Shown here piece after piece: positions 1 through 25,072 of a stretch of DNA of 34,256 bases. The notes beneath the pieces are model-generated. The model saw only the letters and a list, made by a program, of their open reading frames with translations, was not told where the DNA came from and made no database searches. Both the position numbers and the translations under genes were made by a program. The stretch lies in the NCBI GenBank assembly GCA_964388985.1, contig CAYMCJ010000003.1, forward strand, positions 1,190 through 35,445, written 5' to 3'. How positions within the stretch are numbered: position 1 is the stretch's first letter; each line of letters starts with the position of its first letter. This DNA is from an uncultured Gammaproteobacteria bacterium. GTDB taxonomy: Bacteria > Patescibacteriota > Patescibacteriia > Patescibacteriales > CAYMCJ01.

Positions 1-29
1 ATTGTTAATTTATTTAATTCCATAATTTA

Positions 30-65
30 GCCACAAATTACAAATATTATACGAATTTACAAATA
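30..65. repeat. Family A repeat arm (left, flanking the GxxExxY gene)
   Basis: gccacaaattacaaatattatacgaatttacaaata. Confidence 0.8.
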
Positions 66-113
66 GATTATAATAAATTTATACTCAATAATAATAAAAA
101 ATTAATAGATAAA

Positions 114-497
114 TTATAAATTAAGTAATCTATAAAACTTTACACCTGTAGATGTAAAATTTACCAGTATTGCTAATTTTAAATTTGTTACTTTTAAATA
201 TGACTTTATCTGCTCGATATTCTTTTTTGAATAGTAATCTCCTCTTTTTATTTCTATAATAATTTTTCCCTCAACTAAAAAATCTAAAAAATTTCTACCC
301 ACAATATCACCTTTGTATTTTATCCGATAATATACTTGTTTTCTATAAGATAAACCCCTGCTTTTAAATCCGGCTTCAACAGCTCTGCAATATACTTTTT
401 CTAAATGCCCATAGCCAAGTTCATTATATGTCTCAAACATTACTCCGATAATTTCATAGCTTAACTCCTTATAAACTATTTTGTTCCCTCCTTGCAT
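114..497 (-). CDS. GxxExxY-family protein (PD-(D/E)XK nuclease fold)
   Basis: 127-aa ORF. It has the G-x2-E-x2-Y signature (GHLEKVY) near the N-terminus and a D...E-x-K core (DFLVEGKIIIEIK) as in PD-(D/E)XK nucleases. Family name recalled as TIGR04256. The start codon abuts repeat arm 498-534. Confidence 0.8.
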   Translation of the reverse strand: MQGGNKIVYKELSYEIIGVMFETYNELGYGHLEKVYCRAVEAGFKSRGLSYRKQVYYRIKYKGDIVGRNFLDFLVEGKIIIEIKRGDYYSKKNIEQIKSYLKVTNLKLAILVNFTSTGVKFYRLLNL

Positions 498-534
498 ATA
501 TTTGTAAATTTGTACTTGATTTGTAATTCGTGGC
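498..534. repeat. Family A repeat arm (right, flanking the GxxExxY gene)
   Basis: tatttgtaaatttgtacttgatttgtaattcgtggc is built from four ATTTGTA-like heptamers. It touches the GxxExxY start codon and the gatC stop codon. Confidence 0.8.
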
Positions 535-839
535 TATTCTAGTACCCTCTTTACCCTTACCTGCCCGTCTTCCAGCTCCGGCGCTTCGGCCAGAGCTTTC
601 TTTCTTTCTTCAGAATCCCAATCTTTAATCTTATCTTCACGCATTATATTTTCCAGCCCGGTTACCTGCGCTGTCGGCTCTATTTCCTTAGTATCAACTT
701 CTTTTAAACGGTCTATATAATTTAAAATATCCGACAACTGACTGCCGTATTTTTTTAACTCAGCCTCACTTAACTCTAACCGAGCCAATTCCGCAATATG
801 TTTAATTTCGTTTTTGGTTAACTTCATAATAATGTCCAC
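534..839 (-). CDS. gatC: Asp/Glu-tRNA amidotransferase subunit C
   Basis: The translation LTKNEIKHIAELARLELSEAELKKYGSQLSDILNYIDRLKEVDT follows the canonical GatC pattern. The track start at 839 is GTG; the ATG at 827 (MKLTKNEI) is the more likely start. Confidence 0.88.
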   Translation of the reverse strand: MDIIMKLTKNEIKHIAELARLELSEAELKKYGSQLSDILNYIDRLKEVDTKEIEPTAQVTGLENIMREDKIKDWDSEERKKALAEAPELEDGQVRVKRVLE

Positions 840-908
840 AAATTACGAATCCTATACAAATTTACAAATACTCTATACATAAATTTGTACTTAATTTGTA
901 ATTCGTGG
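836..908. repeat. Family A inverted doublet (gene-less) between gatC and ligA
   Basis: ccacaaattacgaatcctatacaaatttacaaata, a 10-nt spacer, then aaatttgtacttaatttgtaattcgtgg. Confidence 0.8.
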
Positions 909-4114: not shown

Positions 4115-4611
4115 TCATACAATACAGTATCGGCTACATAATTATAAATGTTGCCGCGGTCCGGCCATTCAATTCGGCAGGAAACATTGATATGTTCCGT
4201 GTCTGACTCGGTAATAGTAATTAACCGACTGAAATTACTATCGGGTTCACTAACGTCATATAAATAAAATTCTTCTCCGGTATTGGTTTTAATCTGCAAT
4301 TTAGCTTCTTCCATCCCGGAAACACTATTAATATATCCGGTATAATCATTAACATAATTTCCAGCCGTTAAACCATCATTCCAGATTATTCCGTTCAGCC
4401 AATTATTATCCCGTTTATTTCTAATGAGTTCCAAACCTTCCTGCGCTAACTGTGAAGCTATTAAATTATTTTTATTAACATATTGAATTTGTATATTTTG
4501 TACAACCAAAGACATAATTCCCACCAGGCCGGTGGCAATAATAAAAATAACCGTAATTATCTCTAAAATTGAAAAGCCATATTTCATTGTTATATTGTTA
4601 TATTGTTTCAT
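4105..4611 (-). CDS. Prepilin-type minor pilin (PilV-like)
   Basis: 168 aa. G|FSILE motif plus a hydrophobic helix (IITVIFIIATGLVGIMSLVV). Two candidate ATGs (4611 and 4587) lie in a duplicated tcattgttatatt segment. Confidence 0.62.
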   Translation of the reverse strand: MKQYNNITMKYGFSILEIITVIFIIATGLVGIMSLVVQNIQIQYVNKNNLIASQLAQEGLELIRNKRDNNWLNGIIWNDGLTAGNYVNDYTGYINSVSGMEEAKLQIKTNTGEEFYLYDVSEPDSNFSRLITITESDTEHINVSCRIEWPDRGNIYNYVADTVLYDWR

Positions 4612-4623
4612 TGTTATATTATT

Positions 4624-4778
4624 AAATCACAAATCCAAAATTACAAATAATAAATAAATCCAAAATTGCAATAACCAAAATTCAAAACAAATTTTATTTT
4701 TTAAGTTTTAAACATTTGAATTTCGGGTTTGTGATTTATTTGTTGTTTGGTACTTTGAATTTGTAATTTTTATCCCCT
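4624..4778. repeat. AT-rich imperfect inverted repeat with ACAAAT-type units (degenerate family A-like)
   Basis: aaatcacaaatcc..aaaattacaaat..aaaattcaaaac on the left is mirrored by catttgaattt..gggtttgtgattt..gaatttgtaattt on the right. Boundaries are approximate. Confidence 0.5.
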
Positions 4779-4781
4779 TGG

Positions 4782-4801
4782 ATTCCCGCTTTCGCGGGAA
4801 T
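4782..4801 (-). repeat. GC-rich 8-bp hairpin with GAAA loop
   Basis: Minus strand ATTCCCGC-GAAA-GCGGGAAT. No adjacent T-run, so it is not a canonical terminator. It generates the spurious FPRKRES peptide in ORF 4708-4908. Confidence 0.6.
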
Positions 4802-4904
4802 GACAATAGTGAGACATTAACATTATTAAGCTGTAAAAAATTTTTACCATAAAATTTAAAAACCATATAGCCATATAACAATATAATCATATAGCAATAA
4901 AATT

Positions 4905-5486
4905 TCAATCAATGACATCAATTAATCCTAAAAAATTAACTTCAATCGTTTTTACGGATTCCCCGTCGCTTAATTCTATTTGCACCAAATTATTATTAGA
5001 ACCGCTACTGTCAATAATCCAAATGATTGGGTCGGGCGGCTCAAAACTAATATCAGCCGAACTACCGCTTCCAATAATAATATCATTTATTTTAACGCCG
5101 GCCGGCAAGCTTATTGTCTCGTATTCTTCGGTTAGTTGATTACAAATTCCGTCTCCGTTAACATCGGCAAAAACAATATAATTTTCCGGGTCTAAAACAG
5201 AAAAATGTATTCCCCACCCTCCCTTAGGGGCGTCACTATCAAATTTTTTCAGACCAAGGGAATAATTCTGGGCAAATCTTATGTCGCTGGCCAATTTTTG
5301 GGCGGACATAATCAGTTCAGACCGCTTCTTTGTGCCATGATAATTAGCCAAAAAAAGACTGGAAATCATCGCAATAATGGAAATTCCCACTACAAATTCA
5401 ATAAGCGAAAAACCACGCCTCTCATTCTTTAAAAAAATACTAAATTCAGAGAAAAAAAATTTTTTGTTTTTAATTTTTGTATCCAT
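4905..5486 (-). CDS. Prepilin-type minor pilin (GspH/FimT-like)
   Basis: 193 aa. G|FSLIE motif and a hydrophobic helix, then SAQKLASDIRFAQNYSL, which resembles GspH/FimT-type pseudopilins. A TATAAT lies 5 nt upstream of the ATG. Confidence 0.65.
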   Translation of the reverse strand: MDTKIKNKKFFFSEFSIFLKNERRGFSLIEFVVGISIIAMISSLFLANYHGTKKRSELIMSAQKLASDIRFAQNYSLGLKKFDSDAPKGGWGIHFSVLDPENYIVFADVNGDGICNQLTEEYETISLPAGVKINDIIIGSGSSADISFEPPDPIIWIIDSSGSNNNLVQIELSDGESVKTIEVNFLGLIDVID

Positions 5487-5496
5487 AACTTATTAT

Positions 5497-5656
5497 AGGA
5501 CTGTCGCCGAGTGCGCTTTTGAAGCGAAAATTTAAAAAATCAAAAAAAATTTTATACAATCTTTGAGGTTTACCTGAAAGTTAAACTAAAAAAAATTAGA
5601 AAAAATTTTACTGATTTTTTGGATTTATAGCCAAAACGATATTCGGCGACAATCCC
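5497..5656 (-). repeat. Family C stem-closed ~160-nt element, copy 2 (upstream of the FimT-like gene)
   Basis: Its reverse complement aligns over its full length with 23772-23938 (shared blocks ttttggcta, taaacctcaaa, tttcgcNNcaaaagcgca). The terminal arms 5497-5514 and 5639-5656 pair. Confidence 0.75.
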
Positions 5657-7724: not shown

Positions 7725-7758
7725 AAATGGTTAATTATAATAATCAACATACAACACT

Positions 7759-7830
7759 CAATATTCATTCAACTCTCAATATTATAATATTCAATTGGAT
7801 ATTAATTTATTTAATATTGAATGAATATTG
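7759..7830. repeat. Family B AT-rich repeat (AATATTG heptamer units), self-complementary
   Basis: caatattcattcaa (7759-7772) pairs with ttgaatgaatattg (7817-7830). 7793-7826 is the reverse complement of 9392-9426 (one mismatch by hand). Confidence 0.65.
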
Positions 7831-7841
7831 GATATTGAATA

Positions 7842-8240
7842 TTACAATTGACTTATAATTTTTTCCCCCATCTTTATCATTTTCTCTTTTTCCCCGGCCG
7901 TATCATCGTCATAGCCCAGCAAATGGAGCAAACCATGAACCAAAATAAACACAAGCTCCTGTTTTGTATTATTATTAAATTTTTTCGCTTGTCTTTTTGT
8001 TTGGCTGTAATTAATTATTACTTCTCCTAAAAAATCCTCATCGCCGACAAAGGCCAAAACATCGGTTATTTTATCTATCTTTCGATATTTTTTATTCAAC
8101 TGGCGAATTTTTTTATCCCCGACAAAGGCGATTGACACTGTATATCTCTTTCTTCCCTTTACATTCAAAAACTTTTCACTAACTTTTTTAATAAGCCTTA
8201 AATCAATATTACTTCTTGTCTTGTTGTTTATCTCAATCAT
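7842..8240 (-). CDS. ybeY: rRNA maturation endoribonuclease YbeY
   Basis: 132 aa with the H-G-x-L-H-L-x-G-Y-D motif (VHGLLHLLGYDDD). The third metal-binding His is replaced by Asp. Confidence 0.9.
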   Translation of the reverse strand: MIEINNKTRSNIDLRLIKKVSEKFLNVKGRKRYTVSIAFVGDKKIRQLNKKYRKIDKITDVLAFVGDEDFLGEVIINYSQTKRQAKKFNNNTKQELVFILVHGLLHLLGYDDDTAGEKEKMIKMGEKIISQL

Positions 8241-9315: not shown

Positions 9316-9391
9316 ATATTTTATATTAATAAACAACATCCAATGATCAAATTCCAAACAAATATCAATAATAAAATATTCAATACCAAAA

Positions 9392-9426
9392 CATTCATTC
9401 AATATTTAATAAATTAATATCCAATT
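9392..9426. repeat. Family B AT-rich repeat, second copy (inverted)
   Basis: cattcattcaatatttaataaattaatatccaatt. Confidence 0.65.
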
Positions 9427-9537
9427 TAACATTGGAACATTGAGGGTTGATAAATATTGAATTTTGATTAATTTAATATTGTTTGATTATTGGTGCTTAA
9501 TTATTGATTATTATAAATGAATATATTATTTTATATC

Positions 9538-10548
9538 CTAAGCCTGTTTGGGATTATATCCATTTTTTATTTCTTCACCGTCTAAATAACCGTCGCCGTC
9601 AGTATCGGCCTTAAGCGGATCGGTTTGGTATGTTTTAACTTCTTCATAATCGGATAACCCATCAATATCGGTATCAATTTTAAGAATATCGGTTCCAAAT
9701 CCCTCTTCTTCGCTATCCAATAAGCCGTCGCCGTCAGTATCTTTCTGACCTGTATAATCATCTCCAACTTCGTTTAACCCATCGCCAACTTCTTTATTGA
9801 TCGGCAGCTTCAGCAGTTTACCTTCTCCTTTGGGATTGTTTCCTGCTTTAATCTCTTCACCGTCTAAATAGCCGTCGCCGTCAGTATCGGCGTTAAGCGG
9901 ATCGGTTTGATATACCTTAACTTCTTCCCGGTCAAACAAGCCGTCGTCATCAGTATCAACGCTATTAATATCAATCCCCAATTCTTTTTCTTCTTCATCG
10001 GTTAAACCGTCGCCGTCGGTATCAAGCAATTTATTTTTTTCACTTTTTGGTTCTTCGGCTGTATTTTCGACGGTATCATAATTACTCTCGCCGCCGATAG
10101 CCTGATTATCGTCTTCGGCTTTATTAATATTATAGCTGTCTTCATTTTTCTGAAGCGGCGAAATAAAACTAAGCTTGCTTAAACCCCAAAAAATTATTAA
10201 AACACCCGCCAAAAGGCCCACTATCATTATAGCAAAAATAATAATCTTTTTCACGTTTTCTTTTTCCAATACATTTCTTTCTTTATAATCATTTTTTAAT
10301 CCCTGGCTTTCTAATGCTTTTAGTTTAAACAATCCCGGCTTTTCCCGGTCAGCATTTTTATCGGTCTCGGAAAAAATATCTTCAACCGGCCTATTTGATA
10401 AATTAGCCGCGCCTAACCGCGCCTTTTGATTATTTTCATTATTTAAAGGCTGCCCCGCGCTCTTTAACTCCGGTTTGACCAACCTATCGCCGACTATATC
10501 ATTTTTATTGTTTAAATTATCAAACATAAAATTTTTTATTAAAGACAA
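9538..10548 (-). CDS. Membrane-anchored thrombospondin type 3-like (DxDxDG) repeat protein
   Basis: 336 aa. One TM helix (IIIFAIMIVGLLAGVLIIFWGL), then six DTDGDG(L/Y)xDxEE-type repeats, with an internal duplication (VKVYQTDPLNADTDGDGYLDGEEIK / VKTYQTDPLKADTDGDGYLDGEEIK). Confidence 0.75.
   Translation of the reverse strand: MSLIKNFMFDNLNNKNDIVGDRLVKPELKSAGQPLNNENNQKARLGAANLSNRPVEDIFSETDKNADREKPGLFKLKALESQGLKNDYKERNVLEKENVKKIIIFAIMIVGLLAGVLIIFWGLSKLSFISPLQKNEDSYNINKAEDDNQAIGGESNYDTVENTAEEPKSEKNKLLDTDGDGLTDEEEKELGIDINSVDTDDDGLFDREEVKVYQTDPLNADTDGDGYLDGEEIKAGNNPKGEGKLLKLPINKEVGDGLNEVGDDYTGQKDTDGDGLLDSEEEGFGTDILKIDTDIDGLSDYEEVKTYQTDPLKADTDGDGYLDGEEIKNGYNPKQA
9572..9645. repeat. Intragenic 74-bp near-identical duplication, copy 1
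   Basis: tcttcaccgtctaaataaccgtcgccgtcagtatcggccttaagcggatcggttt... recurs at 9854-9927 (offset 282 bp). Confidence 0.8.
9854..9927. repeat. Intragenic 74-bp near-identical duplication, copy 2
   Basis: See 9572-9645. Confidence 0.8.
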
Positions 10549-11596: not shown

Positions 11597-14500
11597 TTAA
11601 TCTTCCGGGGTTGCATTTTTTTCTTCTGTCGAATTGCTTTCGGACCCGTCAAGACTGATTGATTTAACTATAAAATAATAGGTTGAATTATTTATTAAAT
11701 TATTAATAATCTGCGGATTGACGGCTGTCCCGGGCGTACTGGTGGGAACCTCCTGAGTATACGGTCCACCCTCGGCTAAACCATAATAAATATTATATTC
11801 CGCCACGCCAACGCCGTCGCAACTCCAGGTCAATTCAGCTTCTCCGTTGCCGCCAACAATGCTTAAATTATTCGGAAAACTAAACGGTCTGGCGCTAACT
11901 TCATTTGAAAAATCAATATTTTCATACCAATCCGCATTGACTGATTTTACCGCAAAATAATAAGTCAGGCCGTTTGTCAAGCCGCTAATAATCTGTGGGC
12001 TGACGGCTGTCCCGGGCATAACACTTTCCTCATGATTGCTATAATTACCCGGATTCAAGCCATAATAAATATTGTAGCCACCAGCTCCGTCAGCCGCCTC
12101 CCAGCTTAATTTTATTTCCTGGTCTCCAATTTTAACAACACTAAATCCGCTAACAGAGGAAAATGGAATGGCTGATTCATAATCAATATCGCTTTCATTG
12201 CCATAAATATCATAACCAACTATACCAAAACAATATTCTACGCCGTTCATAAGACCGGACACGCTTGTTGTATTAATAGCGGTCGCGCCGGGCATGGCCG
12301 GTGCTGAAGCTCCAAATTTTACACTTTCATCACATATACCGCTTTTAGCTTTATAATAAATCCTAAAACTAATTGCATCACCATGGCTATTATCTTCCCA
12401 CACTACATCAACCTTGCTATCTTTCGGAGTTATAGAATCAATAACCGGGCCGTCAGGAGATTCAGTATCTTTTGGGGTGGCGGAAACCTCGTTTGAATAT
12501 TCGCTTTCAGCTCCGCTGGCATACTCGGCCGTAATCACAAAATAATAAGTTGTGTTATTAGTTAAATTATCAACAATAAACGGAATGACGGGTGAATGCG
12601 CCCGAGGGGTAGAAGTTGAATACGAATAAGAGCCAGAATTAATCCCGTAATATATATTATATTTATCCAAAATCTCACCGGCCGGAGGCGTAATCCCACT
12701 CCAAATTAAGGCCGCCTTATTTCCCTGCGCCAAAGATGAATTGGTGGTAGTAGCCAAATTTATCCCCGAAGCATTTGGTAATTCTTCCCTGAAAAAATAG
12801 GACTCTTTTAATAAACTATATTCACAAAAACCTTCCCCGCAAATATCTCCAACCCCCTGGCCGATACAATTATATTGAGAATCGGTACATTCCAAATTAG
12901 CGCCTCTTATAATGGTGTCGTCGCTTAAAATTGCGGGCAAATCATCGGCTGTGCCAAATCCGCCTGAATCACGGCAATAATATAATTCATAATTGGTGTT
13001 GAAGCAGCCCTGGTCAGAAATAGTGCAGTTAGCGGCCGTATCTTGCCACGGTGCCCAGGTACCGTCATCTCTGATTGGCGGCCAAGGATTCTCGCAAACA
13101 AATACTCGCACCGTTGATGTGCCCGTCTTAGAGCCTCCTCCGGAAACATTAGCGGTAGCATTAATAAAGGTTTTGCCATCGGTAACGCCGCTTTGCGCTA
13201 TAATTAACTGCGAACTGCTGGCGCTATCAAAAGGAACATTGGCGGGAAACATATAGGCGGAGGTTGTGGCTACAATACTTCTATTGTCTATTGACCAAAT
13301 CCAATCCCACCACCGGCCTTCAACCGGCACAATAATCTGCCGGCCGGCCATCTCCGAAGCCGATGCCTTAGCAACAAAAACCTTATCACTGTCTTTAGCG
13401 GTATCAAAAGTAGGGTCATCTGGATTATAATCATTTTCATTAAGATCATTCTTTGTTGTCTGAAATAAATATGGATTTGGCTCTATTTCAACATCATTAA
13501 TCTGGCAAAAAGTGGCGTCATATTGCGTACTATAAGTAGTAAATTGCCAAATATATGAATTAGTAAAAGTCAAACCATTAAATTCGGAAGCATCGCTTAT
13601 GGGACTGCTGGTGGCATTCATGCCCACATCCCAATGGCTCAATACGCCGCTATTGCTATCTAAATCTTTATCTCCTTTTATAATAACATAATACTTCCTG
13701 GAGGCAGCCATTAATTTATTGGGAGAAAACGTTAATTTGGTCTTTTTGTTTGCTGTTTGTTCTCCGCTAACAACGCCTTCAATAGCGCAATAATTATGGT
13801 CAGGGTCAGACAGTTCGGCCAAAACGCTTTTTCCTCTAAATATTGAAATAAATTTATTTTTAAAAGTTCTGATAACTTTATTAAAAATTTTAACGAAAAT
13901 ATTTCTTTTGACCGGCAATTCTCCGTTAAAAGCCAAATAAACCGTCCCGCCGGGGCACATTTCCTCTTCGTAATCTCCGATAACAATTACATTGCCCGTA
14001 AAACTGTTTATATCCATTTTTTGGTCAAAAGTAGCCGATATCTGCGCATTACGGCAAACGCTATCGGTATTGTTGGCCGGCATAATGTTTTCTATATAAG
14101 GTCTGGTTCGGCAGCAGGTATCAGAGCCACAACCAGCAGCCTCAATGTCTCCGCAATGACTATCTTGACCGCAGCCGCAACAAAGCCCGCGCTCATCAGT
14201 CTGAGCAGTACAGGGTTCAATGTTTGACTGGCATTTTAACTTTGTTGTCGCGTCTCCGGTAACAATCTCTCCGCATTTATCATCACCCGGGTCGCAACAG
14301 CAACGACAATCAGAGCCCGATTTGTCCAAACAATCCAAATATTCACCGCAACTATCCAAGCCGGTCTGGCACATGGGCGGGTCAAGGGTTTTTTTACATT
14401 CTGCTCCTATGGGATAAGCCGGCCCGGCAATACATTTCGCTTCACAAGTGCTGGTGGCCGTAAATACCCTGCCGGTAGAACTGGCTATTTTAATATAATC

Positions 14501-17500
14501 AGGAAATAATCCATAACACCCATTGGCAAAATTTTCATCGCAGCGATAATAAGCGCAATAATAATCAGTTGCATTGGCCGCTCCCTCTAATTCTTGAAAA
14601 CCCGACTCTCCCTTGCAATTATCAAAATTCATCGCGTCAACACAACAGGTAGTATGATGAAACGAACATAAATTAGTAGTTGACAACTGATTACAATCAC
14701 TGCAAATACCGTCGGGGTAGCCATCGCCGTCATTGTCATCACCGACATTAACATCACAAAATTTTCCAGTGCTGGTAGTACAATTACAGGCCTGGTCTGA
14801 TAAAATTTGTTCTGTGGCCGATATGGCTCCATCTCCATTGCTGTCAATCCGGCAACCGGAACAATGTCCATAAGTATTGGTATCAACACTGGCCGCGTCA
14901 CTGCCGCAATTTCCCGTACAACTTAAAGTGGCGCAACAATCCTGACTGGCATTACTAATCCGGCAGCAGCATTCGCACTGGTTGATAGGAGTATTATACT
15001 CGCATATATCTGAATTACAGCTTGAGCCGGCCGGACATACTTCCCCGCCGATATAGCACTTGCCTTGATTGTCCGCCGCTCCCTCCGCTTCACAGTCAAA
15101 ACCACTGCTGCACGGATTACAGACTTGAGGGGTTGACGGGGTTAAGGCTGGGTCTACCAGGGTACACCAGCCGTTAACAGCCAATTCCCAATTGCTATTG
15201 GGGCAGCTTTTTAGCCCGGGATTAATCTGCCAATAATAATTGGCTCCAACCTGTCGGCATTGAGCGCCGGTATAACCGGCCGGCAAACTGATAGAGTCGC
15301 CGCCAATCGCAAATGAGGCCCCTTCGTAAACAGAGCAGGCGGTTGTTAGAGCGCCACTATCCGCTCGGCATTTATTGGCTAACGCGTCAAAGACGCAATT
15401 GGTCCCGCATTGGCTGCCATATCTGTCGCTACAATAATTATTGCCGCAAACGCCGGCGCTGGTTATACGCCCCAGGCTGCATTGTCCTTTGGAATTTGGG
15501 CAAAACTCATTTTCGGCGCAATGGCCGGTTTGCAAAGCCCAGCCCAAACAGCTTTCGGCTGGAGTTGAAGGCGGCGTTGTTGAGCCGGTGCTAAAATCCC
15601 ATTCATAAACAGAGCTGGCTATCAAAGCATAACACTCATCAATGTCTGATTTGCATCTCCCTTTAAAAGTCCCGCCGGGACAACAAACATTACCAGTCCC
15701 GCAATGCTCGTCCTTGGTGCAGGTTCCAATATTAAAATTTAGGCCATTACCAGCTGTCCCCGATGAGCCTTTTACTATTCTAACCGGACCGCTTATAGCG
15801 TTCTGCTGAATAGTGGTGGTGACTTTATACGGCTTAATACCGGCCGTAACGTCAGGGTCCAGACCCCAAAAACCAATATTGACTCCGCCCTGGTCTTTAT
15901 TTAAATGAAACCTTACCTTGCTGTTTATATTGTCAAAAGTGTCAAAATATTCTCCCCATAAACTGATTAAATCATTATTTTGCCCCATAACCGGATCTAT
16001 TTTACATAAACTCGGAGTCAAGGTTAAGCCGCTGTCAACTTTAAATGAACTTGGGGTGGTGCTGCCGGTATCTATGGTCCAGGACCCAATTGTCATTGTT
16101 ATAGTATAATTTCCGCCAGCTAAACCCTCGGGTACTTTGATAATTACCTGGCTATCGCTCCAAAAACTATCAGCGCAAACATCGGGAAATTCATAGTTAG
16201 CCTTAATTCCGTTAATATTTCCAAAATAAACCTGGCTGGTTCCTTGTATATTTTTAAAACCAGTTCCATAAATTGTAACATACTGGCCGAATGTGCCTTG
16301 GACCGGGTCAAAAGAAGTAATATAGGGACCACTATACGGCTCGGCCTCTTTGGTAAAATTCAAATAATTGCTGATTGTATTATTGTTGCTTTTGATAAAA
16401 CTAGTGGTTTTCCCAACCTTAATGTTGGGAACATCCGCCCGGACGGTCATGGCGCCATTATATATAAAATTTAAACCATTGACATGGTTCGTATAATCGC
16501 CAAAATTAACAACGTCATTGCTTAATAAATTAATTCCATAATAAGCAACCGTATCATTCATAATCCCATGATTGGGGTTTAATTTACAAAGTCCCGGTCT
16601 TGATATGCTATTTACTAAAAAATCAGATATAGACGGGCCAATATTGTCATTGGTTGCATCTTCTCCGTTTTCAGCCGTTATTTTAATCGGACCCTTGGCA
16701 GCTCCGTTTGGCACCACGACCACAACCTGACTGTCGGTCCAACTGGTATCACAGTTAGGGTTGGCCGAACTGGCCAGTTGAGCCTCAATAAACCCGGTTC
16801 CGTTCCAAAATGAGATGGTGCTGGTGCCTTCTGAATATTCTTGAAAATATCTTCCTCTGACTGCAACTAAATTTCCTACGGCCCCGTTTGGAGTAGTTGT
16901 ATTGCAAGTTGAAGGAGCGAGGCCCGAACAGTCGCCATTGCTTTGACAGGGTAAATTTATATCCCCATCACAAAATCCGCCCGTAGGGCTTACGTTCTCA
17001 ATTACAGGGTTGCCCAGACAAATACAGCCTTCCTCAATATCGCAATGCAGGTAAGCGCCGCATAAATTATCATCCGTCTGACAAGCGGCCGTGCCGATAT
17101 CGCTGTCACAATCATCGCCGTAGCCGCCGCCGTCTTTACAAATGCAAGCCCCGGCATCGCAATATTGCCCGTCGGCGCAGGCGGTATTGTCCGCCTGACA
17201 ACCGAGTTCCATAGTATTTCCATCGCATGATACCGGCGAAACCGGCCCGCAGGAAGCGCAAACTAAACCGGCGCAAGACCCCCAATAACCGCTGGCCTGA
17301 CAGGTTCTTGTTCCCTGACTGATTACTCCGCACAAGCAGCTTCCACAAGATTGGGTGGCGCCAATCGGACTGCATGATTCCATATAAGGTGTTACTGCTT
17401 CTGATAATTTATTCAAAACAAAACTGACGATTGCGAAAGCGGATAAAATTATTATTAATCCAATTATCGCCCCGGTTAACAACTTTTTGGCCTTTTCAAC

Positions 17501-17755
17501 CTTTTCCGCGTTTCCTTCCGAAGTCATATACAGCCAGCCGCCGTAAATTATCAAACCAACCGCGATAATTCCCAAAAATCCCAGGGCTATCCTGATAATA
17601 TTTACGGCTACTGTCCGCGGGTCTGTTTCTCCCAACCCGATATTCTGGCCATAGCCAACACCCACGTCAACTTCTGCCAAAACGAAATCAGCTATTACAA
17701 AAACAGATATAAAAACAGTAAATATAATTATAAAATTTTTAATTTTTTTAGACAT
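11597..17755 (-). CDS. Giant surface protein: pilin-like two-helix N-terminal anchor + Cys-rich, IPT/TIG, Ig-like and FN3 modules
   Basis: An uninterrupted 2052-aa ORF. The N-terminal signal/TM is followed by the hairpin IALGFLGIIAVGLIIYGGWLYMTSEGN..AIIGLIIILSAFAIVSF. Three IPT/TIG-like modules (PVIENVSPTGG, PYITSFDPVQG, PSLCKIDPVMG). A central Cys-rich core with CxCCC motifs. An SbsA/Big_5-like Ig module (RPYIENIMPANN). Four C-terminal FN3 modules. Confidence 0.85.
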   Translation of the reverse strand: MSKKIKNFIIIFTVFISVFVIADFVLAEVDVGVGYGQNIGLGETDPRTVAVNIIRIALGFLGIIAVGLIIYGGWLYMTSEGNAEKVEKAKKLLTGAIIGLIIILSAFAIVSFVLNKLSEAVTPYMESCSPIGATQSCGSCLCGVISQGTRTCQASGYWGSCAGLVCASCGPVSPVSCDGNTMELGCQADNTACADGQYCDAGACICKDGGGYGDDCDSDIGTAACQTDDNLCGAYLHCDIEEGCICLGNPVIENVSPTGGFCDGDINLPCQSNGDCSGLAPSTCNTTTPNGAVGNLVAVRGRYFQEYSEGTSTISFWNGTGFIEAQLASSANPNCDTSWTDSQVVVVVPNGAAKGPIKITAENGEDATNDNIGPSISDFLVNSISRPGLCKLNPNHGIMNDTVAYYGINLLSNDVVNFGDYTNHVNGLNFIYNGAMTVRADVPNIKVGKTTSFIKSNNNTISNYLNFTKEAEPYSGPYITSFDPVQGTFGQYVTIYGTGFKNIQGTSQVYFGNINGIKANYEFPDVCADSFWSDSQVIIKVPEGLAGGNYTITMTIGSWTIDTGSTTPSSFKVDSGLTLTPSLCKIDPVMGQNNDLISLWGEYFDTFDNINSKVRFHLNKDQGGVNIGFWGLDPDVTAGIKPYKVTTTIQQNAISGPVRIVKGSSGTAGNGLNFNIGTCTKDEHCGTGNVCCPGGTFKGRCKSDIDECYALIASSVYEWDFSTGSTTPPSTPAESCLGWALQTGHCAENEFCPNSKGQCSLGRITSAGVCGNNYCSDRYGSQCGTNCVFDALANKCRADSGALTTACSVYEGASFAIGGDSISLPAGYTGAQCRQVGANYYWQINPGLKSCPNSNWELAVNGWCTLVDPALTPSTPQVCNPCSSGFDCEAEGAADNQGKCYIGGEVCPAGSSCNSDICEYNTPINQCECCCRISNASQDCCATLSCTGNCGSDAASVDTNTYGHCSGCRIDSNGDGAISATEQILSDQACNCTTSTGKFCDVNVGDDNDGDGYPDGICSDCNQLSTTNLCSFHHTTCCVDAMNFDNCKGESGFQELEGAANATDYYCAYYRCDENFANGCYGLFPDYIKIASSTGRVFTATSTCEAKCIAGPAYPIGAECKKTLDPPMCQTGLDSCGEYLDCLDKSGSDCRCCCDPGDDKCGEIVTGDATTKLKCQSNIEPCTAQTDERGLCCGCGQDSHCGDIEAAGCGSDTCCRTRPYIENIMPANNTDSVCRNAQISATFDQKMDINSFTGNVIVIGDYEEEMCPGGTVYLAFNGELPVKRNIFVKIFNKVIRTFKNKFISIFRGKSVLAELSDPDHNYCAIEGVVSGEQTANKKTKLTFSPNKLMAASRKYYVIIKGDKDLDSNSGVLSHWDVGMNATSSPISDASEFNGLTFTNSYIWQFTTYSTQYDATFCQINDVEIEPNPYLFQTTKNDLNENDYNPDDPTFDTAKDSDKVFVAKASASEMAGRQIIVPVEGRWWDWIWSIDNRSIVATTSAYMFPANVPFDSASSSQLIIAQSGVTDGKTFINATANVSGGGSKTGTSTVRVFVCENPWPPIRDDGTWAPWQDTAANCTISDQGCFNTNYELYYCRDSGGFGTADDLPAILSDDTIIRGANLECTDSQYNCIGQGVGDICGEGFCEYSLLKESYFFREELPNASGINLATTTNSSLAQGNKAALIWSGITPPAGEILDKYNIYYGINSGSYSYSTSTPRAHSPVIPFIVDNLTNNTTYYFVITAEYASGAESEYSNEVSATPKDTESPDGPVIDSITPKDSKVDVVWEDNSHGDAISFRIYYKAKSGICDESVKFGASAPAMPGATAINTTSVSGLMNGVEYCFGIVGYDIYGNESDIDYESAIPFSSVSGFSVVKIGDQEIKLSWEAADGAGGYNIYYGLNPGNYSNHEESVMPGTAVSPQIISGLTNGLTYYFAVKSVNADWYENIDFSNEVSARPFSFPNNLSIVGGNGEAELTWSCDGVGVAEYNIYYGLAEGGPYTQEVPTSTPGTAVNPQIINNLINNSTYYFIVKSISLDGSESNSTEEKNATPED

Positions 17756-23422: not shown

Positions 23423-23506
23423 AAAAAATTGTTATAATCTGACTTATGCCTTAAAATGAAATTAAATAATATTTAATTAAACGTCTACCTAAAATTATAT
23501 AATTAT

Positions 23507-23599
23507 CTACGAATTACGAATGTTTTACAAATCTACAAACACTAACGCAAACGTCTCAACTAATATTTGTAAATTTGTACTTAATTTGTAATTCGTGGC
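23507..23599. repeat. Family A inverted doublet (gene-less)
   Basis: ctacgaattacgaatgttttacaaatctacaaaca, a 22-nt spacer, then tatttgtaaatttgtacttaatttgtaattcgtggc. The right arm differs from 498-534 at one base. Confidence 0.8.
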
Positions 23600-23771: not shown

Positions 23772-23938
23772 AGGGACTGCCACCAAATGCCATTTTGGCT
23801 ACAATTTATAAAAATCCGGCCAAATTTTCCCAAAAATTTTTTAGCTTATATTTTTCATATAAACCTCAAAATTTATTGAAAAAATTTGTCTTGAATTTTT
23901 AAAATTTCGCGGCAAAAGCGCATTTGGCGGCAGCCCCT
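23772..23938 (+). repeat. Family C stem-closed ~165-nt element, copy 1 (upstream of the zinc-ribbon gene)
   Basis: Arms agggactgccaccaaatgc (23772-23790) and gcatttggcggcagcccct (23920-23938) pair at 17/19 positions and enclose an AT-rich interior. Confidence 0.75.
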
Positions 23939-23975: not shown

Positions 23976-24146
23976 ATGGATAACAAAGATTATTCCGGCG
24001 GACGCCCGATGGTTAAAGGAAACTGGACCTGTTCCAAATGCGGAGCGGAAATCACAGAACTTCCTTTTGAACCGGACGGAGAAAGACCGCTTTATTGCCG
24101 AGATTGCCATCAGCAAATGAGGCAAAGTCGTCCCAGACGATTCTAA
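23976..24146 (+). CDS. Small CxxC...CxxC zinc-ribbon protein (56 aa, not in ORF track)
   Basis: Hand translation: MDNKDYSGGRPMVKGNWTCSKCGAEITELPFEPDGERPLYCRDCHQQMRQSRPRRF. The C-x2-C / ELPF.P....RP.YC.DC layout matches the CxxC-x17-CxxC domain family common in CPR (here x18). It is followed by an intrinsic terminator and preceded by a consensus promoter. Confidence 0.75.
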   Translation: MDNKDYSGGRPMVKGNWTCSKCGAEITELPFEPDGERPLYCRDCHQQMRQSRPRRF

Positions 24147-24223
24147 TTATCGCCAGACGATTTACAAGAAACATATTATTTAGATAACTTTATTATCATC
24201 TAATATATTTCGAGAAAACGAAA

Positions 24224-24260: not shown

Positions 24261-24297
24261 TATTTGTAAATTTGTAGCTGATTTGTAAATTCGCAGG
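24261..24297. repeat. Family A solo arm next to the ABC permease stop codon
   Basis: tatttgtaaatttgtagctgatttgtaaattcgcagg. A very degenerate partner may lie near 24151-24185. Confidence 0.65.
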
Positions 24298-24304
24298 AAA
24301 ATCG

Positions 24305-25072
24305 CTAAACTTTTATTTTAGAAAAAAAATAACTGCCTAAACTTAAAATCACTATGCTAAAAATAAATAATACCAGAAAATCAGTCAACAGACTAAAATG
24401 CATCTGCCCGACTAAAGCTCCCCTGATGCCATCTACTCCGTAAGAAAGAGGATTAAGCGTGGCCACAACTTCTATGGCCCGGGGTAAATTATTTAAAGGG
24501 AAAAGCGCGCCGGACAGGAAAAAAAGCGGCATGATTAAAAAATTAATAATTAAAGGAAAGGCGTGCATATCCTCCAATAATGAACCAATAGCCGTACCCA
24601 AGGCCGTAAACAAGACGGCTATCAAAATCATAAAAACAAAAACCAATATAAAAGCCGGCGATAAAATCGGATTAAAACCAATAAATAAAGAAATTATAAA
24701 TACAATCAAGCCCTGGGCCAGGGCCACGGTGGCTCCGCCAAAAGTGCGGCCGAGCATAATTGACCAGCGCGAAACCGGCGCCACTAAAGTCTCTTTTAAA
24801 AAACCGAATTGCTTGTCGGCGATAACTTCTATGCCGGAAAACATGGCCGTAAAAATAATACTCATGGAAATTATACCCGGAGATAAAAACTGAAGATAAT
24901 CTCCGCCGCCGGCTTTTTGAAATATCGGCCCGAAGCCAAAGCCTAAAGCGACTAAAAAAAGCACGGGCTGGCCCAAAGAGCCGAGCATCCGGGCGCGCGA
25001 ACGCAAATAACGCTTTAGCTGCCTTAGCCAAAGTATATACATAACATTAATTATTTGTTTTATCTTTTCCAT
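24305..25072 (-). CDS. ABC-2 type transporter permease
   Basis: 255 aa with six hydrophobic segments. It overlaps the upstream ATPase gene by 13 nt. Confidence 0.85.
   Translation of the reverse strand: MEKIKQIINVMYILWLRQLKRYLRSRARMLGSLGQPVLFLVALGFGFGPIFQKAGGGDYLQFLSPGIISMSIIFTAMFSGIEVIADKQFGFLKETLVAPVSRWSIMLGRTFGGATVALAQGLIVFIISLFIGFNPILSPAFILVFVFMILIAVLFTALGTAIGSLLEDMHAFPLIINFLIMPLFFLSGALFPLNNLPRAIEVVATLNPLSYGVDGIRGALVGQMHFSLLTDFLVLFIFSIVILSLGSYFFSKIKV

Follow-up and report, generated by a model that had tools for sequence, protein, structure and literature searches.

The junction between gatC and gatA in an uncultured bacterium of the GTDB lineage Patescibacteriota is occupied by a cassette of about 0.5 kb in which a small gene of the GxxExxY family lies between two inverted arrays of a short repeated unit. 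It was met in a 34,256-nt stretch of contig CAYMCJ010000003.1 (assembly GCA_964388985.1, positions 1,190 to 35,445), here called the window and numbered from its first letter (Table 1). A repeat search of the window gives two arms of 41 nt each, 83% complementary and 427 nt apart, which is essentially the inverted repeat, complementary at 30 of 36 positions (30-65 and 498-534), that a first-pass annotation had noticed from the letters alone. Each arm is composed of four AC-N-AAT units (ATTNGT on the other strand), the four heptamers of that annotation, with start-to-start spacings of about 8, 11 and 8 nt, and on the sense (-) strand the upstream, or 5′-type, arm reads CCACGAAT-TACAAAT-caag-TACAAAT-TTACAAAT. 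With up to 3 mismatches the 36-nt arm has 2 occurrences against 0.00 expected, and with up to 2 mismatches the two-unit core ATTTGTAAATTTGTA has 8 against 0.63 expected, a number reached by 0 of 100 shuffles.

How closely is the insert fitted to its host genes? Public contigs of the same strain (L019 and L022), which reach beyond the left edge of the window, give the gene order on one strand as ligA - [doublet 1] - gatC - [arm-GxxExxY-arm] - gatA, and in the longer of them, L019, the cassette is exactly the interval from the gatC stop to the gatA start, i.e., an operon junction. The outer end of the 5′-type arm overlaps the gatC stop TAG (536-534), which is included in an extended inverted repeat TAGCCAC...GTGGCTA, and the downstream, or 3′-type, arm stops 6 nt short of the gatA ATG (23-21). 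At the inner end of the 5′-type arm the ATG of the GxxExxY gene (497-495) is 1 nt away from the arm (taken as 499-534), where the first-pass annotation had the two adjoining. In a predicted RNA fold of the whole element the arms pair with each other and would bring the gatC stop and the gatA start together. A consensus scan of the arms for promoter or terminator signatures gave nothing above shuffles. Neither the window nor any of 20 related loci matched an Rfam family, which places all of those elements outside rRNA, and the location in helix 9, 25 or 45 of 23S rRNA was not found for the window cassette, which is between gatC and gatA. Short contigs of the same strain break off within the arms, at window positions 502 and 858, as is to be expected because the arms are multi-copy repeats.

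Table 1. Positions of the cassette, its host genes and related copies (window coordinates, except in the last three lines, which refer to homologue loci)
Feature	Position	Strand	Remarks
gatA (amidase subunit A), first 23 nt; host gene directly downstream of cassette	1..23	-	full gatA (PF01425) on public contig L019
Downstream (3′-type) arm	28..68	-	four ATTNGT units; 83% complementary to 496-536
GxxExxY protein gene, 127 aa	114..497	-	PF13366 and TIGR04256 profile matches
Upstream (5′-type) arm	496..536	-	four AC-N-AAT units; inverted-repeat and direct-repeat search
gatC, host gene directly upstream of cassette	534..839	-	PF02686 E=1.4e-20; public gene calls start at ATG at 827
Gene-less doublet 1	836..908 (5′-type arm 873-908, 3′-type arm 836-870)	-	fills ligA-gatC junction; repeat search, hairpin fold
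Gene-less doublet 2	about 23504..23599 (5′-type arm 23564-23599, 3′-type arm about 23504-23541)	-	22-nt loop; hairpin z -5.9
Solo 5′-type (upstream-type) arm	24261..24297	-	repeat match 74%; right after stop of ABC-2 permease gene 24305-25072
Four-helix-bundle genes, L197-L276	e.g. L225 1192-1551; also L213, L215, L248		
Four-helix-bundle gene, L124	1111-1449		
Four-helix-bundle gene, L136	1131-1469		

The encoded protein

That the gene between the arms belongs to the family named in the first-pass annotation is borne out by profile searches, in which both curated cut-offs are exceeded: PF13366 (PDDEXK_3) matches with E=4e-29 and 101.7 bits (cut-off 22), and TIGR04256 (GxxExxY) with E=1.6e-29 and 102.6 bits (cut-off 35). 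PD-(D/E)XK is the sole domain detected. The residues G30xxE33xxY36, D72, E82-I-K84 and Q96xxxY100 are present, and the E-D-ExK plus QxxxY nuclease site is intact. An AlphaFold2 model (pLDDT 91) has the topology H-H-E-E-E-H-E-E and, as top Foldseek matches, Cas4 SSO0001, lambda exonuclease, the splicing endonuclease EndA and Hjc; the neighbours in the fold search are generic PD-(D/E)XK proteins only, and no relative with a solved structure was found by sequence. Judged by its residues and modelled fold, the protein is a minimal RecB/Cas4-like PD-(D/E)XK nuclease with its catalytic site intact, the RecB-like placement being due to the Foldseek neighbours Cas4 SSO0001 and lambda exonuclease and to the QxxxY motif, which is assigned to RecB-like nucleases. 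Among 89 homologues E33 is retained in 89, Q96 in 88, D72 and E82 in 87 each, and K84 and Y100 in 86 each, with retention extending down to about 30% identity, a pattern indicating that the enzyme is kept active and that the ORF (open reading frame) is under strong purifying selection.

What is such an enzyme for? We know of no function assigned to the family, large and often multi-copy as it is. A full-text search of the literature found nothing tying GxxExxY/PF13366 to flanking repeats, to the intervening sequences (IVSs) of rRNA considered below, or to any function, and a 2012 survey of PD-(D/E)XK proteins had entered the family as ‘Unknown’. An origin in a defence system or a phage was considered and rejected: the anti-phage defence models of PADLOC yielded nothing significant, with sub-threshold Cas4b and Csn2 only (E about 0.005), and 2.9 million viral contigs yielded one distant match.

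Generality of the arrays

Is the arrangement a peculiarity of one junction? For an answer 98 homologue loci were taken from GTDB representative genomes of the Candidate Phyla Radiation (CPR)/Patescibacteria, Bacteroidota, Nitrospinota, Verrucomicrobiota, Gemmatimonadota, Fusobacteriota and others; 92 genes had sufficient flank and 89 were used for unit counts. The inverted-repeat score, taken from the best ungapped match in inverted orientation between the two 200-nt flanks of the gene, has a median of 16 and is at least 15 in 62% of the 92 genes, as compared with 0 of 172 shifted windows of the same loci, a mean of about 8 in shuffled sequence, and 6.5% at that score in a direct-repeat control. 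The arms are arrays of 7-8-nt units with the core AC-N-R-A-W, present at 3.0 per 80 nt upstream on the sense strand and, as the reverse complement, at 2.8 downstream; units facing the other way, and control windows, give about 0.45. At least three inward-facing units on both sides were found in 49 of 89 loci and in no control window, nor in any locus with the opposite polarity; 65 of the 89 have at least two on each side. The gene-plus-inverted-repeat unit described by the first-pass annotation from one example is thus a general one. It has a conserved layout of C-rich outer end, two units, a 4-5-nt spacer, two further units and ATG, the gap from arm to start codon being 0-10 nt in many loci, and this is also the layout in the cultured isolates Cerasicoccus maritimus NBRC 105382 (L097), Gemmatirosa kalamazoonensis (L279) and Treponema saccharophilum (L281). 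The ORFs on the two sides share the strand of the gene in 66 loci and are both opposed to it in none, with 12 loci mixed.

All the units inside one element are of the same variant, and the subtype (ACNAAT versus CACAGAT/CGCGGAT) tracks the protein clade, not the host taxon. Thus within Saccharibacteria the units of L090 and L095 are CACAGAT and those of L069 and L073 ACTAAT, and a Flavobacterium (L102) has CGCGGAT where other Bacteroidota have ACGAAT; CACAGAT or CACAGAA units are found in the arms of L090, L093 and L094. Paralogues of the same genome also have their own arm variants (L007, L004/L032). In some loci whole arms are present as tandem copies on one side, with four copies at two alternating spacings in L003 (2638-2917), five at a spacing of about 58 nt in L074 (1164-1458) and three at 110-nt spacing in L066 (1880-2133), and the arms themselves are therefore amplifiable.

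A second cargo with its own unit

The same inverted-array architecture was found, outside rRNA, around genes for the four-helix-bundle protein annotated as ‘23S rRNA IVS protein’ (PF05635/TIGR02436) in CPR genomes (73 CPR loci). Their flanks have an inverted-repeat score of at least 15 in 47% of cases versus 1.4% of controls, and co-oriented and opposed neighbours stand at 47:0. The units, however, are different, being W-A-R-C-H-T (TAACAT, GAAACAT, CATAAC). Per 80 nt, four-helix-bundle flanks contain 2.01 W-A-R-C-H-T versus 0.29 in controls and 0.39 AC-N-R-A-W versus 0.40, and GxxExxY flanks contain 2.90 AC-N-R-A-W versus 0.43 and 0.21 W-A-R-C-H-T versus 0.24. Each of the two protein families has a unit motif of its own, which argues that the GxxExxY protein recognises the repeats.

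Genomes often have cassettes of both kinds: CAYNBD01, CAYPRN01, CAZQMX01, PEUE01, JAUYLZ01 and DMWY01000001.1 (L076, L232), the two in the last being about 3 kb apart. In L194/L195 (325-2881) a GxxExxY cassette is directly 3′ of a diversity-generating retroelement consisting of bAvd, a reverse transcriptase (RT) and a 149-aa ORF; Avd, like the IVS protein to which it is related, is a four-helix bundle. A GxxExxY gene beside an RT has been met before, in a paper on RT classification (PMC8934634).

Copies without the gene, and the same junction in relatives

The gene-less inverted doublets and the solo arm listed in the first-pass annotation were all recovered, so that the window has two doublets in its 34 kb. 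Doublet 1 forms a hairpin of -27.6 kcal/mol (z -5.7), and both fold into long hairpins, with z of -5.7 to -6.3; their stems, and that of the full element, are slightly better as sense-strand RNA. The solo arm is without a partner and does not fold alone (z about 0). The 5′-type arm of doublet 2 is identical at 35 of 36 positions to that of the gene-bearing cassette. All three paired copies in the window share the 5′-arm spacer YAAGT, which is distinct from all the 3′-arm spacers, themselves variable, and the three are therefore copies of a whole polar unit. With dots for the copy itself, their flanks are TAG...CTAAATT, TATAAT...ACATTAT and TATCA...ATAATT, with no direct repeat. Elsewhere, in L006, L007, L068 and L055, there are gene-less doublets whose arms correspond to those of a GxxExxY gene nearby, and the ones in L006 and L007 have a conserved loop sequence of their own. 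The gatA loci of relatives, 331 kb in all, contain only 15 AC-N-AAT arrays, almost confined to the neighbourhoods of GxxExxY genes, and 3 forward-reverse array pairs, each enclosing a GxxExxY gene, with 0 doublets.

Orthologous junctions were compared in 80 relatives with GatA 54-74% identical to that of the window, and in 72 of them the gap between gatC and gatA was measurable. It is empty (at most 30 nt) in 35 of the 72, contains hairpin doublets of heptamer arrays in L115, L129, L122, L137 and L173, a GxxExxY cassette in L105 and L147, and a four-helix-bundle cassette in L124 and L136. Identity to the GxxExxY protein of the window is 57% for that of L105 and 39% for that of L147, as compared with 74% and 65% for GatA. 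In L109 and L116 a GxxExxY cassette is directly upstream of gatC, the position of doublet 1 in the window. The cassette is present or absent at orthologous junctions, and the insertion polymorphism on which the first-pass annotation had made its idea of a mobile element depend does exist. At the level of populations, absence was not seen: every public contig with proteins of the window comes from one strain (at least 99.85% identity) and has the elements. The exact arm pattern gave 0 matches in Joint Genome Institute (JGI) metagenomes, and the species of the window is without a GTDB representative, the best GatA identity being 74%. In relatives (L104-L183, locus position around 1200-1500) the interval between gatC and gatA is a hot spot for insertions, and its other contents include a pair of genes, one for DUF5674 and one of 108 aa (L114, L120, L121), a 169-aa membrane ORF (L112, L117), GC-rich hairpins and a tRNA-like stretch (L158).

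Comparison with known systems

By analogy, the closest precedent is the ORF-bearing IVS of 23S rRNA, known from Coxiella, Leptospira and Brucella, with its S23p/four-helix-bundle ORF, a system absent from the comparisons of the first-pass annotation. In Coxiella burnetii it is a 428-nt selfish stem-loop with a 28-bp terminal inverted repeat cut by RNase III; in its loop the S23p ORF follows three tandem GACAGAT heptamers and one GACAGAA, the copy number of the heptamer differs among strains, and the IVS counts as a selfish element whose mobility is unknown (PMC4990558). The cassettes resemble it as inserts of 0.4-0.5 kb, with terminal inverted repeats as a stem around a loop that has one small ORF, in the sense orientation of the host transcript. 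The window cassette has both the stem enclosing the ORF and the tandem heptamers directly before its ATG, and the GACAGAT of Coxiella is of the same AC-N-R-A-T class as the CACAGAT of some GxxExxY arms. However, the window cassette is between protein-coding genes, outside rRNA, its cargo is a predicted PD-(D/E)XK nuclease instead of a four-helix-bundle protein, and its ORF is under strong purifying selection whereas the S23p ORF of Coxiella is decaying.

The first-pass annotation had instead pointed to repetitive extragenic palindromes (REPs) with their REP-associated tyrosine transposases (RAYTs) and REP doublets forming hairpins (REPINs), and to miniature inverted-repeat transposable elements (MITEs). 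Of this analogy the gene-plus-doublet pattern stands: one nuclease-type gene has inverted copies of a dispersed repeat on its two sides, the repeat is also present between genes as inverted doublets that have no gene, and the elements are long-lived and mostly vertically kept. Membership does not stand, since RAYT is an HUH/Y1 (IS200/IS605-like) transposase and the window gene is RecB-like PD-(D/E)XK, and since a REP is a short palindrome with a GTAG head while the window arm, not palindromic in itself, is a direct heptamer array that pairs only with its partner. Nor do the doublets outnumber the genes as in REPINs and MITEs, being 9 versus 53 gene-bearing pairs when counted near genes. With MITEs and their autonomous insertion sequences the cassettes have in common terminal inverted repeats and gene-bearing and gene-less versions with common ends, but the window cassette has no transposase domain of a known class and no visible target-site duplication, and cassettes are co-oriented with host genes and show no burst of near-identical copies. 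Free-standing homing endonuclease genes include PD-(D/E)XK types such as I-Ssp6803I. Like the cassette gene they are small selfish nuclease genes, sporadic at conserved host sites and spread between phyla; the cassette differs in being without intron or intein, and in that its gene is flanked by arrays of the presumed binding motif. Correia/NEMIS and similar RNase III-processed intergenic hairpin repeats are likewise inverted-repeat elements of operon junctions, co-transcribed and folding into long hairpins, but are gene-less and not made of tandem heptamers.

What the arrays may be for

The explanation to which we lean, with confidence no more than midway, is a layered one: an IVS-like selfish gene-in-hairpin cassette with arrays that serve as cognate sites of its own protein, a nuclease role and read-through. 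Such a cassette would have colonised the gatC-gatA junction of a protein-coding operon, and the GxxExxY protein would bind the arrays with about four protomers per arm. On read-through transcription the arms would pair in the transcript and loop the ORF out, keeping the upstream stop and the downstream start adjacent and the host operon still working, and RNase III may cleave the stem, as it does in the IVSs of rRNA. The nuclease would cut at or beside its own arrays, whether as DNA duplex or as extruded hairpin, and the cutting would promote copying or retention of the cassette, by homing or by excision and insertion, at a low evolutionary rate. Gene-less doublets would be internally deleted, non-autonomous copies that retain the sites. 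The layers differ in strength. The arms are most likely binding sites for the cassette’s own protein, a link predicted because the motif is conserved beyond neutral or merely paired sequence and is specific to the ORF family, and it is plausible that the nuclease mobilises the element in a RAYT/REPIN-like manner. Where the first-pass annotation had suggested that the GxxExxY protein recognises or mobilises the repeats, recognition is thus argued for by the family-specific motif, while mobilisation is no more than plausible, with doublets few, paralogues divergent, one cassette at a single site in all the places shown, and non-nuclease cargo in the same design (see below).

Might the arms act only as RNA? 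A pure RNA-level IVS-type element would have arms that serve as an RNase III-cut stem, removing the insert from the operon transcript, and a nuclease that is unrelated cargo, e.g., a repair or defence enzyme, and does not recognise them. The IVS precedent with its RNase III-cut stem (PMC4990558), the 66:0 co-orientation with host genes, the arms adjoining host stop and start codons, and the long stems of doublets and full element, slightly better as sense-strand RNA, are all as it would have them. However, pairing in a stem does not depend on a motif, and the AC-N-R-A-W units are nonetheless kept from phylum to phylum, are specific to the ORF family and are of one variant throughout each element. 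The motif remains conserved even where protein identity has fallen to about 30-40%, and the central spacer is often non-complementary: in the 31 elements with the best alignment, a match between the arms was found there in only about 45-55%. Transversions account for 81 of the 147 arm mismatches, and mismatches compatible with G-U pairing number 31 and 35 on the two strands; selection for RNA structure was rejected as a candidate on this lack of excess on the sense strand. Together the conserved motif, the unpaired spacer and the lack of G-U bias argue for sequence-specific recognition over mere pairing, and we consider the pure RNA element unlikely.

Also improbable in our estimation is that the arrays are an autoregulatory operator, bound by the GxxExxY (or four-helix-bundle) protein to repress or tune its own expression or the read-through into the downstream host gene, and that the unit has been spread by ordinary recombination or transformation. 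Its appeal is that the unit code is family-specific, that the arms adjoin the start codon (0-10 nt in many loci) with no space for a separate ribosome-binding site, that a non-catalytic protein uses the same design, and that the elements are old and stable. A repressor, though, has no need of near-invariant catalytic residues, autoregulation leaves unexplained both the two-sided inverted arrays and the free-standing gene-less doublets, and the independent occupation of the same junction by different lineages (L105, L147) needs an insertion mechanism. That the arms are host-beneficial REP-like intergenic hairpins, i.e., mRNA stabilisers or terminators, into which an unrelated gene was inserted by chance, so that the association of gene and repeat is coincidental, is very improbable: although several other hairpin families are found in operon junctions of the window (4581-4903, 7746-7843, 9390-9505) and relatives have many unrelated hairpins between gatC and gatA, 49-65 of 89 independent homologues and 0 controls show the association, AC-N-AAT arrays other than those beside a GxxExxY gene are nearly absent from the 331 kb of DNA from relatives, and the arms have no terminator or promoter signature.

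To return to the layered explanation, a number of points weigh against it. About a quarter of homologues show no arrays. In the distant members L280 and L282 the arrays are direct instead of inverted, and distant members of the family are under-sampled, 80 of the homologue loci being the best-scoring among more than 572 matches. The four-helix-bundle proteins in the same architecture are not nucleases, and catalysis by the cargo is thus not required for this life-style generally. At the three window copies neither a target-site duplication nor a conserved target can be seen. Beyond the low count of doublets near genes given above, there are 0-1 doublets per 200-330 kb elsewhere. Paralogues of the same genome are 29-61% identical and, on their sequences, are old, with no burst of near-identical copies. 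One cassette, P0053, is at the same polA-holA site in all 10 places shown, of 22 carrying contigs from many samples, so mobility is slow at best. The low doublet number, the divergence of the paralogues, the constant P0053 site and the missing target-site duplication argue against fast or REPIN-like amplification.

Wider implications

To our knowledge the ORFs of 23S rRNA IVSs have gone unexplained since the 1990s. The heptamer observation in Coxiella was a single one, not generalised before, and the link of GxxExxY proteins to repeats is new to the literature found by full-text search. Could the two orphan families be parts of one story? A tentative proposal, which goes further than the layered explanation and which we rate as possible but on balance doubtful, is that GxxExxY and four-helix-bundle proteins are the signature proteins of one unrecognised class of selfish elements, with a single small ORF between inverted arrays of 7-8-nt units, a unit code for each family (AC-N-R-A-T versus W-A-R-C-H-T) and a life in host transcripts, be they those of operon junctions or of rRNA; the GxxExxY protein would then be a new array-guided homing or transposition nuclease, and the classical rRNA IVSs a special case that had landed in rRNA. 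Other heptamer repeats that lack an explanation might then be relics of such elements too, the STRR sequences of cyanobacteria being one candidate; a tblastn search of plasmids gave no cyanobacterial matches.

Both orphan families being in the same kind of inverted heptamer-array cassette, each with its own motif and co-oriented with host transcription, their function becomes experimentally testable. All this suggests a new class of compact selfish elements with operons as their home, both in bacteria with reduced genomes (CPR/Patescibacteria) and in Bacteroidota and other phyla. There are practical aspects too, as the cassettes break metagenome assemblies at their arms and inflate the counts of ‘hypothetical’ genes in CPR genomes. 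An apparent inversion of the P0053 cassette relative to polA, in L190 (ena:ERZ4903185:k141_4554489), was rejected: the contig folds back on itself as a palindrome, with the polA end at either side, and the artefact arose in assembly or library preparation from the inverted arms. Artefacts of this type may be common around such cassettes.

Other repeats in the window

Several further repeats accompany the cassette family in the window. A second family of inverted arrays, with units ATAACAAT and ATTGTTAT, is at 4581-4619 and 4865-4903, where it encloses 245 nt (4620-4864) between two pilin-like genes. This interior has a GC-rich hairpin at about 4779-4803, GTCATTCCCGCGAAAGCGGGAATCC, similar to ones in the gatC-gatA gaps of L118 and L126, and, at about 4630-4760, a degenerate hairpin like those of family A, the family of the cassette arms; no four-helix-bundle remnant was found in it by tblastn. 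A third hairpin family (CAATATT/AATATTG) is present as doublets at 7746-7843, in the dgkA-ybeY junction, and at 9390-9505, upstream of a 375-aa ORF; the two, 87% complementary over 61 nt, bracket ybeY and that ORF. A 56-nt element occurs at 5498-5553 and 23881-23936, 82% complementary and thus the same sequence on opposite strands, once upstream of a pilin-like gene (4905-5486, -) and once upstream of a small CxxC...CxxC ORF (23977-24147, +), and looks like a shared promoter or 5′-leader with a conserved GC stem. Finally, the 2052-aa ORF at 11597-17755 has internal repeats, also at 14708, with 195-nt and 30-nt units around 9547-10023 in a neighbouring ORF; it is probably a large surface protein, unrelated to the cassette.

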